Part shown: positions 11,577-40,753 of the stretch, piece by piece
How the letters are laid out: every line of letters begins with the position of its first letter
Position numbering within the stretch: the stretch's first letter is position 1
DNA from: an uncultured bacterium
Lineage (GTDB): Bacteria > Ratteibacteria > UBA8468 > B48-G9 > JAFGKM01
Direction of reading: 5' to 3'
Length of the DNA stretch: 45,353 nt
Assembly (NCBI GenBank): GCA_964421645.1
Contig: CAYQXZ010000002.1
Location: 1 to 45,353, forward strand
The notes under the pieces: model-generated
What the model was told of the DNA's origin: nothing
The model's input: the letters and a program-made list of their open reading frames with translations, nothing else
The model's database searches: none
Made by a program: the position numbers and the translations under genes

Positions 11577-12173
11577 TCAGGGTGAGGGTGCTCTCCTGAT
11601 CTCCCTTACCATCCCCGGATTTATCACGAACGCGGACAGGATTAACATAATCGTGGATACTGCCGTCTGAACAAAGAGCGCCCTGTCAACCCTCAATCCG
11701 TACTCAATATACAGACAGATAAAATAGAAGACCGTACACGTAAGAAGGACCCTTGGTGAACGCGGATTTATCTTCTGTGCGATAAACCACAGGATTATCA
11801 CGAGCGGAAAAAGTAGAGGCATGAGAAACAGAACTATCCCTCCGGTAGTCGCTGCCCCCTTGCCTCCCCTGAACCGCAGGAAAATTGACCAGCAGTGCCC
11901 GGCCACGGCAGACAGCCCGATGAGCGTGAGGAGAATTATATTTGTGATGCCCAGGTTTCTCGCAAAGGCCATGGGAACCATGCCCTTTACGGTATCCCCC
12001 GCCCAGACCAGAATGCCCCACTTCTTCCCTATGCTTCTTGCCACGTTCGCGGCACCGGAGTTCTTCGTTCCTATTTCCCTTATATCCTGTCCAGTCAGGA
12101 ACAGTGTGAGCAGGTATGCAAAAGACACACTCCCCAGCACATACCCGGCCACCACGCAGGCAGCTATCTCCAT
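11577..12173 (-). CDS. plsY: Glycerol-3-phosphate acyltransferase PlsY
   Basis: GSVSFAYLL, NSGAANVARSIGKKWG, GHCWSIFLRFRGGKGAATTGG. ATG at 12171-12173; the ORF track uses GTG at 12176. Confidence 0.92.
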   Translation of the reverse strand: MEIAACVVAGYVLGSVSFAYLLTLFLTGQDIREIGTKNSGAANVARSIGKKWGILVWAGDTVKGMVPMAFARNLGITNIILLTLIGLSAVAGHCWSIFLRFRGGKGAATTGGIVLFLMPLLFPLVIILWFIAQKINPRSPRVLLTCTVFYFICLYIEYGLRVDRALFVQTAVSTIMLILSAFVINPGMVREIRRAPSP

Positions 12174-12188
12174 CACCCCCGTTATACC
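12133..12188. repeat. Direct repeat copy 1 (plsY -10 region, start codon and first ~13 codons)
   Basis: 56 nt, CCCAGCACATACCCGGCCACCACGCAGGCAGCTATCTCCATCACCCCCGTTATACC. Recurs at 15034-15089 with one mismatch (offset 2901 bp). Confidence 0.95.
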
Positions 12189-14225: not shown

Positions 14226-14274
14226 TTGCACCTCCCGGAACAACGGTGACGCTGCACAGAGAATCAGCTTTCAG

Positions 14275-14328
14275 AGGCCGCTGTTTCCATCTCAACCGTT
14301 ATACCTCCGCGCCCCTCCCCCCGTCAAC
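14275..14328 (-). repeat. Diverged third copy of the plsY promoter/start region, probably the promoter of the phasin-like/ubiB operon
   Basis: Minus strand: TTGACG (14322-14327), 18-nt G-rich spacer, TATAAC (14298-14303), then ATGGAA. Colinear with the plsY upstream region: CCGTTATACCTCC is identical and the rest is roughly 65-70% identical by hand alignment. Confidence 0.6.
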
Positions 14329-15026: not shown

Positions 15027-15074
15027 CTACCATCCCAGCACATACCCGGCCACCACGCAGGCAGCTATCTCCAT
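15027..15074 (-). pseudogene. Truncated plsY 5-prime fragment (MEIAACVVAGYVLGW-stop)
   Basis: ATG at 15072-15074 followed by 13 codons identical to plsY. It then diverges and stops at TAG 15027-15029, 6 nt from the hepT stop codon, in convergent orientation. Confidence 0.8.
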
Positions 15075-15089
15075 CACCTCCGTTATACC
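15034..15089. repeat. Direct repeat copy 2 of the plsY 5-prime region
   Basis: 55/56 identical to 12133-12188; the single difference is C to T at 15079. Confidence 0.95.
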
Positions 15090-36273: not shown

Positions 36274-36631
36274 AAAATCTTCCGGACTCTTTGAGCGCCC
36301 GCCCTCCCGGATAGGCGTGATACTGGTCGGCCGGAGAAAGATCAGGGAGCTTAACCGGCAATTCCTTAATAAAAACGCGGATACCGACGTAATGAGTTTC
36401 AGGATATCAAGGGATTACGGGGAAATCGTGATTTCGGCCGAAACGGCAGCAGAAAACGCCGTCACGTACGGGCTGACAACTGAAAACGAGATACTTTACC
36501 TTGTAATGCACGGTTACCTGCATCTGAAAAACTACAGGGATTACACGGAACGGGAGAGAAAAAGGATGTTTGACAAACAGGACGGCATGTTCAGAGAATT
36601 GATGAAAAAATCAAGGGGTGTACGGCGATGA
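36176..36631 (+). CDS. ybeY: YbeY-family rRNA maturation endoribonuclease (variant metal motif)
   Basis: Position after phoH. Motif VMHGYLHLKNYRD corresponds to the canonical HGxLHLxGYDH. The only ATG start (36176) overlaps phoH by 98 nt. Confidence 0.8.
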   Translation: MKDTAGKRNPEFLVENRQKKIRIYPDRIRTRIEKSSGLFERPPSRIGVILVGRRKIRELNRQFLNKNADTDVMSFRISRDYGEIVISAETAAENAVTYGLTTENEILYLVMHGYLHLKNYRDYTERERKRMFDKQDGMFRELMKKSRGVRR

Positions 36632-37362
36632 ACGCGGAAAAGAACGGCAGAAAACAGGATATCGTTGCAAGTTTCAATTCCGCGCTGGCCGGATTGCTCT
36701 ACGTTCTCAAGAAGGAGCGGAATTTCAAGATACACGTGGTTGCCGCAATTCTTGTCATAATTCTCGGCCTTTTCCTCAAACTGCCGATTCCGGAATTCCT
36801 TCTCCTGCTGATTGTTATCACAATTGTGATGACTGCCGAACTGATAAATACGGTGGTGGAGATAGTAATTGACGTTTTCATAGAGGAGTACCATTTTGAA
36901 GCAAAAAAAGCCAAGGACATATCGGCCGCGGCGGTGTTGCTGGCGGCGATCCTTTCGGTGATAGTCGGCTACCTGATATTCGTGAAACATTTCCCCGCGG
37001 GATGGAGAAACATGTTTGACAACATAGCGGCATCTCCATGGCACATGAGTTTCACCGCACTCGTGCTGGTGGTCTCCCTTTCACTTTTTGCCAAGTTTGT
37101 CATAGAAAAGAAATACTCCATATCGGGAGGAATGCCAAGCATCCACAGCGTTATCGCCTTCAGTATCTGGACTGCGATATCAATCTTCACGTTCAGCGAA
37201 TTTCCGGTTATTTCCCTGCTCGTATTAATTCTTGCATTCTGGGTTGCCCAGAGCCGGGTCTTGAGGGGAATTCACAAACCCGCAGAGGTGGTCGCAGGCG
37301 GCATTATAGGAATTTTTCTCACCACGCTCTTTTTCCAATTGATAGGGGTCATATCACGGTAA
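36628..37362 (+). CDS. dgkA: Fusion of DgkA-type diacylglycerol/undecaprenol kinase with a PAP2-like phosphatase module
   Basis: N-terminal half has DgkA motifs (RNFKIH, ELINTVVE..ID, AKKAKDISAAAVL). C-terminal half has PAP2 C2/C3-like motifs (MPSIHS; SRVLRGIHKPAEVVAG). Confidence 0.75.
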   Translation: MNAEKNGRKQDIVASFNSALAGLLYVLKKERNFKIHVVAAILVIILGLFLKLPIPEFLLLLIVITIVMTAELINTVVEIVIDVFIEEYHFEAKKAKDISAAAVLLAAILSVIVGYLIFVKHFPAGWRNMFDNIAASPWHMSFTALVLVVSLSLFAKFVIEKKYSISGGMPSIHSVIAFSIWTAISIFTFSEFPVISLLVLILAFWVAQSRVLRGIHKPAEVVAGGIIGIFLTTLFFQLIGVISR

Positions 37363-37618
37363 TCTTGACTATTTGCCGGAGGTGATTTTGGAGCGAGACA
37401 AGGAGCGAAAAGCGTTGCGTAGTCAAAGTACTACGCATGCGATGAGCGACACGGTCGCAGCCCAAAAGCGACCCGGCCCTTCGGGGAGTTCCATCTTTGG
37501 GTCATTGCGACGTTGCTTCTCAGTTATGTGCCACAGAGGGCACACAGCCTTCGCAGCGCCTTGCACTGACCTCAAATCTGGAACTCCAAATGGCCAAGAT
37601 TACCGTGATCCGACCCCT
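37344..37618. other. G+C-rich intergenic element closed by a 24-bp inverted repeat (candidate structured ncRNA / MITE-like element / invertible segment)
   Basis: Arms at 37344-37367 and 37595-37618 are complementary at 22/24 positions, with a 15-bp perfect core. Several nested helices can be drawn in the 227-nt interior. No credible CDS. Confidence 0.5.
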
Positions 37619-37632
37619 TTAGGAGGTGGTAA

Positions 37633-38253
37633 GTGAACACCCTCAAAAAGCATTTTCTTTCCGGATTGATATTTATTATTCCAGTATCTCTTTCATTATG
37701 GATACTTTTCAAGATAATCAGTTTTATTGATAACATACTCGGCGGTTTCATGAAGAAGTATTCTCCGGGGATCTATACCCCCGGCGTAGGTTTTTTCTCC
37801 CTTATTCTTCTGATACTTCTGCTGGGTTTTCTGGCTGACAATTTTTTCGGTAAGAGATTGCTGAACATGTTTGAGAATCTTTTCAAAAAAATGCCGGTAA
37901 TCAACAGGATATATGTTTTCACAAAGAGTATCAGCCAGAACCTTCTGCATGGAAAGGCAATAGCTTTCAAGGAAGCGGTAAAGATAGAATTTTTTAGCGG
38001 GACATACACGATAGGATTCATAACGGGGGAATTGTGCCTGAACGGCAAGGAAACCTTTGTAAGTGTTTTTGTTCCCACCGTACCCAACCCGACCACGGGA
38101 TTTTATCTTCTTGTACCGGAGGAAAAAATTGAGAGACTTCATATTCCGGTGGAGGAAGCCCTGAAGATGATCATATCCATGGGAATGTTTGAACCTGAAA
38201 ATGGCACCTCTAAAAACAGAAGCAATAGTCCTGAAGAAAAACAACTTCCGTGA
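37633..38253 (+). CDS. DUF502-family membrane protein
   Basis: Two N-terminal TM helices and the motifs KMPVINRIY and VFVPTVPNPTTGFYLLVPE. GTG start 6 nt after AGGAGG. Confidence 0.8.
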   Translation: MNTLKKHFLSGLIFIIPVSLSLWILFKIISFIDNILGGFMKKYSPGIYTPGVGFFSLILLILLLGFLADNFFGKRLLNMFENLFKKMPVINRIYVFTKSISQNLLHGKAIAFKEAVKIEFFSGTYTIGFITGELCLNGKETFVSVFVPTVPNPTTGFYLLVPEEKIERLHIPVEEALKMIISMGMFEPENGTSKNRSNSPEEKQLP

Positions 38254-40470: not shown

Positions 40471-40546
40471 CGGGGCGTGGCTCAGCCTGGTTCAGAGCGC
40501 TTGGTTCGGGACCAAGAGGTCGGCGGTTCGAATCCGCCCGCCCCGA
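40471..40546 (+). tRNA. tRNA-Pro, anticodon CGG
   Basis: Acceptor CGGGGCG/CGCCCCG+A, anticodon stem CTTGG/CCAAG, loop TTCGGGA, T arm GGCGG-TTCGAAT-CCGCC. CCA is not encoded. Confidence 0.9.
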
Positions 40547-40652
40547 TTAGCAAGCTTCTTTGGAGGCGGGTTCGAACACTGGTTCGAGCCGAGGCATGTT
40601 TTTCCCTGAATCATATGCTCAGAGCCGCTGGTGCCGAGACCGTGCAAAGCAC

Positions 40653-40670
40653 AATCCGCCCGCCCCGATT
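40653..40670 (+). repeat. 18-nt duplicate of the tRNA-Pro 3-prime end
   Basis: AATCCGCCCGCCCCGATT is identical to 40531-40548. T-arm-like fragments lie between the copies (GGCGGGTTCGAAC about 40565-40577; CTGGTTCGAGCCG about 40579-40591). Confidence 0.85.
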
Positions 40671-40753
40671 CGCAGGGTATATTCCGGGCACATAGTTTAC
40701 ACTTTTCTTCTTTCTCCCAAAAAAGCCACCAGAATTGCTACCTATCGTTAGTG

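Follow-up and report, generated by a model that had tools for sequence, protein, structure and literature searches.

What is the G+C-rich spacer of about 270 nt that separates dgkA-PAP2 from the DUF502 gene in an uncultured bacterium? The stretch of DNA analyzed here (contig CAYQXZ010000002.1, 45,353 nt; hereafter, the window) carries an inverted repeat at this place, and an earlier note on the sequence had left three readings of it: a novel structured RNA, a MITE (miniature inverted-repeat transposable element) that rebuilt the end of dgkA-PAP2, or an invertible segment (inverton). Our analysis indicates that the spacer is probably a copy of a non-autonomous mobile element, i.e., a MITE, of Omnitrophota-like genomes, with the 32-bp repeats as its terminal inverted repeats. 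The nested helices inside it are the conserved three-way-junction interior of this family, which is apparently undescribed.

The spacer and its dispersed copies

The inverted repeat was present and was longer than the 24 bp noted before: its arms are 32 nt long, 88% complementary, and separated by 211 nt (Table 1). The perfect 15-nt core of the arms occurred at only two sites in the window, both in the arms, while 0.01 sites were expected from shuffled sequences. The placement of the arms also held, with the TAA stop of dgkA-PAP2 (37360-37362) within the left arm, the Shine-Dalgarno sequence AGGAGG (37621-37626) 2 nt past the right arm, and the GTG start of DUF502 at 37633, and so did the high G+C content, which was 0.53 over 37250-37549 vs 0.39-0.47 in the flanks. 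The + strand RNA of the 275 nt was predicted to fold with -133.9 kcal/mol (z = -9.2 vs shuffles), and the - strand with -131 kcal/mol (z = -8.8). In agreement with the earlier note, no recognized RNA was found: the whole window gave no match in Rfam at the gathering score, and the spacer region had no family at E up to 10, the best match being a chance CRISPR-DR of 14 bits. Two divergent copies of the family described below also gave no match at E up to 10. Known RNA classes (riboswitches, ribozymes, RNase P, 6S, tmRNA, HEARO, OLE, GOLLD, ROOL, and group I/II introns) were rejected because no covariance model matched, and a retron non-coding RNA because the neighbors are dgkA-PAP2 and DUF502, not a reverse transcriptase, and the copies are dispersed rather than confined to a single locus. 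The sole open reading frame (ORF) of the 273-nt element, of 87 codons, had no Pfam match, and a transposase gene is absent from it. Inside the window copy, we found no terminator motif and, as noted before, no promoter in either orientation, and no recombinase gene lies in the neighborhood.

The stop-free frame of the spacer was translated and used as a degenerate probe against metagenome contigs, and this revealed 32 loci with a unit of ~245-275 nt in unrelated flanks. A second probe, the most conserved 19-mer (GATTTTGGAGCGAGACAAG, 37384-37402), was searched in one genome per species and was found exactly in at least 119 stretches of these species-representative genomes, with three to four chance matches that lacked the rest of the element. 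Among the matches listed, the labels were nearly all of Omnitrophota type, the others being unlabelled or probably mislabelled metagenome-assembled genomes (MAGs). The complete chromosome of Ca. Velamenicoccus archaeovorus holds two copies, and single MAGs contained the 19-mer in at least 14 (JAZDPL01) and at least 12 stretches (CAZVUE01). Both arms were within reach in 112 of 153 core matches, with a length mode of 270-280 nt, and internally deleted derivatives of ~160-230 nt, consisting of the arms and domain A, were observed at different sites in one MAG. A family profile built from 72 members (nhmmer) detected a single copy in the window, at 37344-37617 (E = 4.8e-74). Moreover, contig ends often fall inside copies, including those of two short assemblies of the window locus that break inside the spacer, and the repeat family breaks Omnitrophota assemblies in this way. 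The viral contig collection contained no match to the core 19-mer, and there is thus no sign of a phage vector. The ~170 fetched loci (~1 Mb) were searched for a transposase gene bounded by these termini, and none was present; the search yielded only remnants and solo-arm hairpins with joined arms and almost no interior (L038 751-793 and L169 7737-7789), which resemble the remnants at L004 and L014 described below. Literature searches on Omnitrophota MITEs or repeats, and on the core sequence, gave no description of the family; a paper on a Velamenicoccus 'mobile intron' was discarded as a prior description, as it concerns a 23S group I intron.

Some copies could be compared directly. Locus L124 (Ca. 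Velamenicoccus archaeovorus LiM, NZ_CP019384.1, block 1752001-1760000) and L117 share one copy (arms GTCCAAGCCTATCTATGG...) together with its flanks, and the two versions are only a few substitutions apart in two species-level genomes, i.e., the copy was retained at an orthologous site. In addition, a hairpin module of 30-33 nt (CCCTTGTCAATCCTATGACAAGGGG...) was seen in domain B of L031, L035, L091, L125, L140, and L143, whose arms differ, and it was missing in L107, which is otherwise orthologous to L091. This distribution implies recombination between copies or a secondary mini-insertion.

Target sites and the history of the locus

The termini of the copies define subfamilies with their own target sites. 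In the GGGG subfamily, which includes the window copy (arm GGGG(T/C)(T/C)G......AATAA..TTGAC.ATTTG), the flanking triplets were identical in 27 of 55 copies (TAA in 12, TTA in 12), and the control triplets, taken three bases further out, in 1 of 55. Copies of the CTGAG subfamily (arm CTGAGCC..) had TA on both flanks in 24 of 34 cases (control, 2/34), and those of the TTGACC subfamily (arm TTGACC..) in all six (control, 0/6). The terminal inverted repeats are roughly 31 bp long. Two pairs of filled and empty sites were identified, the window vs L005/L011/L015 and L083 vs L161, and the empty sites hold a single copy of the target. In L083, the element separates the Shine-Dalgarno sequence of a topoisomerase-like gene from its ATG; the gene starts MSKNLVIVESPTKAK and is uninterrupted in L161 (GGAATTAAATG). 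In the comparison of L083 with L161 (2202-2501), we also observed that only P1, the closing stem of the element, would hold the Shine-Dalgarno sequence and ATG close to each other. An ORF of at least 100 codons stops between -12 and +46 nt from the element end in 68 of 96 copies; the flanking triplet itself is the stop codon in ten GGGG-type copies, and the arm's own TAA at +18 serves as the stop in six copies, as it does in the window. The target preference explains this placement of copies at gene ends.

The IS5 and IS630 families of insertion sequences are the bacterial relatives of PIF/Harbinger and Tc1/Mariner, respectively. The GGGG(C/T)TG-type termini resemble Tourist/IS5-type ends, and GGGGTCGT.TCAGAA resembles Tn21-type ends; a relationship with the Tn3 family was dismissed, since it needs a 5-bp duplication and none was seen. 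TWA and TA are the duplications made by the PIF/Harbinger and Tc1/Mariner superfamilies (PMC3278479, Table 1). The GGGG subfamily would be mobilized in trans by a DDE transposase that generates 3-bp TWA duplications, of the IS5/PIF-Harbinger type, and the other subfamilies by TA-duplicating relatives.

We compared the same locus in related genomes. The DUF502 protein, along with an identical spacer, was found on contigs of five other samples, and the named sources of homologues were Candidatus Omnitrophica/Omnitrophota. The closest relatives (73-80% DUF502 identity) share the gene order aspS-LysM-phoH-ybeY-dgkA/PAP2-DUF502-recO-fumarase, and their gap between dgkA-PAP2 and DUF502 is only 0-29 nt. 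The site is empty in L005, L011, and L015, with the sequence CAATTGCTATGGAGGTGGTAAATG; dgkA-PAP2 there encodes a protein with the end FFQLLWRW*, its stop directly next to the ATG, and the window protein ends in FFQLIGVISR*. In L014, L004, and L008, a remnant is left: the left arm still forms the C-terminus of dgkA-PAP2, IGV(I/V)SK/R* (for example, GGGGGCATATCACGGTAATATTGACTATT in L014), and the interior has been lost, with a different deletion end point in each. The flanks are TTA...TTT in L014 and ATA...TTT in the window, where the duplication has decayed. This comparison showed that the element entered an ancestor of the window lineage at a T-W-A site among the final codons of dgkA-PAP2, just upstream of the ribosome-binding site of DUF502, and that sister lineages later deleted most of it. 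The local annotation is thereby corrected: dgkA-PAP2 owes its last six codons and its stop to a transposon, as the earlier note had considered possible, and the operon does not have a regulatory region in the 270-nt spacer. Since L004 and L014 have an arm without interior, we also considered a native left arm with the right arm as its inverted copy; this was dropped, as the family shows the same arm architecture everywhere, and these two loci are accordingly deletion remnants.

Collectively, the elements are short (below ~600 bp) and transposase-free, bear terminal inverted repeats, generate target duplications with matching empty sites, and occur in multiple dispersed copies, as a MITE does, although the duplication is a property of the family and that of the window copy has decayed to ATA/TTT. 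An invertible switch bounded by the 32-bp inverted repeats would have repeats of suitable length, and Correia elements have been reported to invert (PMC10969869); however, there is neither a promoter in either orientation nor a recombinase gene nearby, three spanning independent assemblies and two partial ones showed one orientation, and the repeats are accounted for as the transposon ends of a dispersed family. An inverton is thus the least credible of the readings, and we give it next to no weight.

The orientation of the copies was counted with the element masked and crude ORF calls. Copies between two genes on the element's + strand numbered 47 and those between two genes on its - strand 15 (p = 6e-5), i.e., ~3:1 in favor of sense, and the sense:antisense ratio was 22:9 in the GGGG type and 21:3 in the CTGAG type. 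One frame was open in 35 of 56 GGGG-type copies, with a mean of 1.3 stops vs ~4 in the other frames, and in five cases a conserved gene reads in frame through a copy that lies within it: in an EF-Tu-like GTPase, between domain 2 and the C-terminal domain; in ComEC, between the DUF4131 and Competence domains; inside a GATase_2 domain; inside an intein of RtcB; and in a PCMT precursor, between the signal peptide and the catalytic domain. The peptide segments predicted from the open frame include LPEVILERDKER and AAQKRPGPSG. The intein of the RtcB RNA ligase (L078 5928-8000) hosts the element in frame, so that one mobile element is nested in another. Most copies are at gene ends or intergenic, the intragenic and in-frame ones being a minority. 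Because insertions are found at stop codons, between ribosome-binding site and start, and in frame in proteins, they will mislead gene callers and pseudogene counts in a phylum that is poorly known.

These observations bear on the possibility that the element is a coding palindromic element, like those of Rickettsia, and that the window frame at 37373-37636 encodes an 87-residue protein coupled to DUF502. Besides the open frame and the read-through copies, it is in line with this idea that the duplication brings the modal length to 276 nt, i.e., 92 codons, and that the window ORF overlaps the start of DUF502 with its final GTGA. However, the peptide had no Pfam match and was contained in only 14 mostly short predicted proteins among 5.8 billion, and the CTGAG-type copies were open in only 8 of 31 cases, yet they are even more orientation-biased. 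Moreover, the frame differs between subfamilies as a result of indels and hairpin insertions, substitutions follow the pattern of paired helices, and the window ORF starts with TTG with no ribosome-binding site noted. In L043 (1270-2840), the gene for a MacB/FtsX-type permease is interrupted out of frame: a 269-nt copy and its AAA duplication add 272 nt, which three does not divide. The reading frame of the N-terminal 72 codons ends at a stop that lies 13 codons inside the element, and the remainder of the gene is in frame with the open frame of the element. This copy is probably a fresh disruptive insertion. We therefore judge a coding role very improbable, and the 87-codon frame of the window is probably not a gene.

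A conserved fold under selection

An alignment of 72 non-redundant copies gave a fold with the closing helix P1 and two domains of ~100 nt around a small central hairpin, i.e., a three-way junction. RNAalifold placed 68 pairs, 59 of them with compensatory changes. Paired cells amounted to 94.3%, vs 35-41% when the partners were slid by 1-3 columns, the covariation score was 0.60 vs ~0.07, and none of 500 shuffles reached the observed values. The junction strands are invariant across the family, e.g., GGAGCGAGACAAGGAGCGA, and in the helix 37405-09/37443-47 the flanking pairs covary (G-C/A-U, A-U/G-C) around a tandem G-A. Among the helices that had been drawn by hand, covariation supported 37416-37423/37430-37437, 37527-37544, and the CCC-UUCG-GGG cap, but not 37454-37459/37506-37511 and 37461-37468/37495-37501; in their place, the comparison of copies gives the pairings 37386-37394/37460-37467 and 37499-37508/37563-72. 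The reading as a novel structured RNA was thus right about a conserved, covarying structure, but this belongs to a mobile family and not to the locus. The family is structurally conserved in the way functional RNAs are, phylum-wide.

The arms behaved differently from the core. Within the 72 copies, 93.7% of the positions of a copy's own arms were Watson-Crick paired, vs 52% when arms from different copies were combined. For the outer arms, the mean pairwise identity was 49-50%, compared with 72% for the core, and within the GGGG subfamily it was 68-70% vs 79%. Once again, in one MAG with ten copies, the core was 92% identical and the arms 83-84%, with only 61% at arm positions 6-14, a variable stretch for which each copy has the matching complement in its opposite arm. 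A role of this stretch as a guide to the target was rejected, as the longest match to the copy's own flank averaged 6.40 nt and that to the flanks of other copies 6.39 nt. These data showed that pairing is under selection in the family. Two pairs were strongly G-U on the + strand (G-U 37 vs A-C 1, and G-U 23 vs A-C 4), but the wobble counts overall (P1, G-U 39 and A-C 54; interior, G-U 98 and A-C 72) and the minimum free energy of 88 copies on both strands revealed no consistent strand difference, so the selection demonstrated for pairing does not tell whether RNA, one DNA strand, or both are folded. In MITEs, the ends are normally conserved and the middle is free. This family reverses the usual pattern, and across distant genomes its helices covary and its junction strands do not vary; it is a tractable case in which to ask whether a mobile element can be selected for its folded single-stranded form. 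The earlier note had taken dispersed copies with target duplications as the sign of an ordinary MITE; both are present here, but the conservation pattern is not ordinary.

Four points weigh against the interpretation as a MITE moved by a DDE transposase. First, such a plain element leaves a core better conserved than the arms, and arms that are variable yet complementary, unexplained. Second, as no transposase with the same ends was found, the mobilizing enzyme is deduced from the duplication length only. Third, the window copy is intact although ~40-50% of the DUF502 third codon positions differ between the lineages that share the insertion (third-codon identity 50-61%), which hints at constraint or at refreshment by other copies. 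Fourth, the single-gene tree does not cleanly unite the remnant-bearing lineages as monophyletic, and it is too weakly resolved to decide the order of insertion and loss.

The element could instead move as a folded single strand, either as DNA, like REPIN/RAYT, IS200/IS605, and attC, or as RNA that is copied back, with an enzyme that reads the junction and P1. An arm sequence that is free while its pairing is kept, the contrast between arm positions 6-14 and the core within one MAG, and the covarying interior with invariant junction strands all agree with such a mechanism. So do the orientation bias of ~3:1 to 7:1, which is expected of strand-specific mechanisms, and the lack of a parent insertion sequence in the fetched loci. 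On the other hand, clear 3-bp and 2-bp duplications with a single target copy at empty sites are typical of staggered double-strand cuts and atypical of HUH or tyrosine enzymes; the counts in P1 and the equal folding energies of the core on both strands reveal no consistent asymmetry; and inspection of the neighborhood of copies, made by eye only, showed no gene for a reverse transcriptase, RAYT, or integrase. We therefore hold single-strand movement to be unlikely. We are equally reserved about the related suggestion that the three-way-junction core is a functional nucleic-acid machine, not filler, be it a 'stealth' fold in which P1 clamps the flanks together and insertions into operons, ribosome-binding regions, or even coding sequences stay phenotypically silent, a structure for single-strand mobility, or, at the extreme, a means of intron-like removal from transcripts; if any of these held, the family would represent a structured mobile element of a new kind, found only in the ultra-small Omnitrophota.

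The state of the window copy could also suggest that the element was domesticated here as a cis-acting RNA of the operon, with P1 acting as an RNase III site, as an mRNA-stabilizing end, or as a coupler of the dgkA-PAP2 stop and the DUF502 start. The copy is intact despite an insertion that appears old, judged by the third-codon identity to remnant-bearing relatives. At 8 of the 110 strongly conserved columns it departs from the family (median 3.5), and 3 of its 68 pairs are broken (family median 4). Two compensated pairs, 37359G/37603C and 37490T/37582A, account for four of these eight departures; when the copy is compared with the closest members of the family, a GAA->CGG change in the left arm is matched by TTC->CCG in the right one. 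P1 encloses the stop codon and is followed after 2 nt by the Shine-Dalgarno sequence, and RNase III cleavage at the inverted repeats is known for Correia elements (PMC10969869). However, the operon outlasted the deletion of the interior in three related lineages, other lineages never had the element or lost it, and the same fold is present at hundreds of unrelated sites. Refreshment by recombination is an alternative source of the intact state, given the 30-nt module common to copies with different arms, and the full copy occurs at this locus in one species-level lineage, identical in five samples, so that covariation within the locus cannot be measured. Domestication seems to us slightly more doubtful still than single-strand movement.

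With the mobile-element interpretation, a locus-specific regulatory role need not be invoked. The sense-oriented element would be carried as a compact fold in the phoH-ybeY-dgkA-DUF502-recO transcript; co-transcription is inferred from its sense orientation in a tightly packed, same-strand gene string and the lack of a promoter or terminator in the element. The P1 stem may re-join the upstream stop, which is inside it, with the downstream ribosome-binding site, 2 nt after it, and the insertion would in this manner be tolerated. The conservation of the core and of arm pairing may reflect selection on the element lineage, either for single-strand folding during movement or for harmlessness when transcribed or translated.

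Coordinates of the locus and comparison with known systems

Table 1. Parts of the element and of the adjoining genes, in window coordinates.
Feature	Position	Strand	Basis
Element proper, GGGG...CCCC, 273 nt (modal length of the subfamily)	37345..37617	+	nhmmer profile, family boundaries
Left flank triplet ATA, decayed target-site duplication	37342..37344	.	TTA/TAA duplications of the family; sister remnant L014 has TTA
Right flank triplet TTT, decayed target-site duplication	37618..37620	.	Empty site CAATTG-CTA-TGGAGG of L005/L015
Left terminal inverted repeat, 5' strand of P1	37344..37375	+	Helix 1, 30/31 pairs with compensatory changes
Last six dgkA-PAP2 codons (GVISR + stop), supplied by the left arm	37345..37362	+	ORF reading
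Right terminal inverted repeat, 3' strand of P1	37587..37618	+	Pairing; compensated change 37359G/37603C
Domain A	37376..37476	+	Covariation; holds P2, junction strand GGAGCGAGACAAGGAGCGA, P3, and P4 hairpin
P2 in domain A	37376-78/37474-76 and 37386-94/37460-67	+	Alignment of copies
P3 in domain A	37405-09/37443-47 (tandem G-A) and 37416-23/37430-37	+	Alignment of copies
P4 hairpin in domain A	37446-58	+	Alignment of copies
Central small hairpin GGCCC-UUCG-GGG at the three-way junction	37475..37486	+	Variable-length insertions here in other copies
Domain B, long hairpin	37487..37585	+	37487-91/37581-85, 37499-508/37563-72, 37515-16/37556-57, terminal hairpin 37527-37544
dgkA-PAP2 fusion gene, 3' end rebuilt by the insertion	36628..37362	+	Pfam DAGK_prokar + PAP2; C-termini compared
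DUF502 Shine-Dalgarno AGGAGG + GTG start, native	37621..37635	+	Homologous to GGAGGTGGTAAATG of empty sites
Stop-free frame, 87 codons, starts TTG, probably not a gene	37373..37636	+	Open frame of the family; out of frame with dgkA-PAP2; no Pfam match

Other repeats were observed in the window. The 3' end of the tRNA-Pro(CGG) gene at 40471-40546, AATCCGCCCGCCCCGATT (40531-40552), is repeated 122 nt downstream with 95% identity (40653-40674), just before an RHH/PIN toxin-antitoxin pair, and this looks like the attachment-site scar of an integrated or excised element. A direct repeat of 56 nt, 98% identical, is found at 12133-12188 and 15034-15089, 2.9 kb apart, with a weaker copy at 14250-14305. 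A second inverted repeat (10073-10093/10180-10200) has 21-nt arms that are 86% complementary and 86 nt apart, and its sequence is unrelated to the element.

Several known systems share part of these properties. Like REPIN/RAYT and the attC sites of integrons, the element is non-autonomous and hairpin-forming, has an arm sequence that varies with its pairing preserved, and is long-lived in its lineage; those systems, however, make no target-site duplications and have no large conserved interior. Membership of REPIN/RAYT was rejected on account of the target duplications of the family, and neither a RAYT nor an integron integrase was linked to it, RAYT not having been searched genome-wide. The Rickettsia palindromic elements are likewise palindromic and are located in frame in unrelated conserved protein genes, to which they add a peptide segment (PMC10969869). 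Unlike them, this family is about twice as long, has clear duplications and long terminal repeats, is intragenic and in frame in only a minority of copies, and contains one subfamily that is rarely open.

The 3-bp TWA duplication of the GGGG-ended subfamily is that of IS5/PIF-Harbinger and the Tourist-type MITEs, and the 2-bp TA duplication of the CTGAG and TTGACC subfamilies that of Tc1-mariner/IS630 and the Stowaway-type MITEs (PMC3278479, Table 1). In contrast with these superfamilies, one conserved core is here combined with two duplication lengths and several unrelated arm sequences, and no matching transposase was found. The Correia elements of Neisseria (CREE) and the ERIC sequences of enterobacteria are also transposase-free units like this ~270-nt one, with terminal inverted repeats and short AT-rich duplications, and they too have many dispersed copies, often at gene ends and in operons, whose transcripts are predicted to form very stable stem-loops (PMC10969869). 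They differ from this family, for which no parent insertion sequence was found, and whose ends diverge even within one genome while they stay complementary and the core is better conserved; moreover, this family has a three-way-junction interior with invariant junction strands that is conserved over a phylum-level group.

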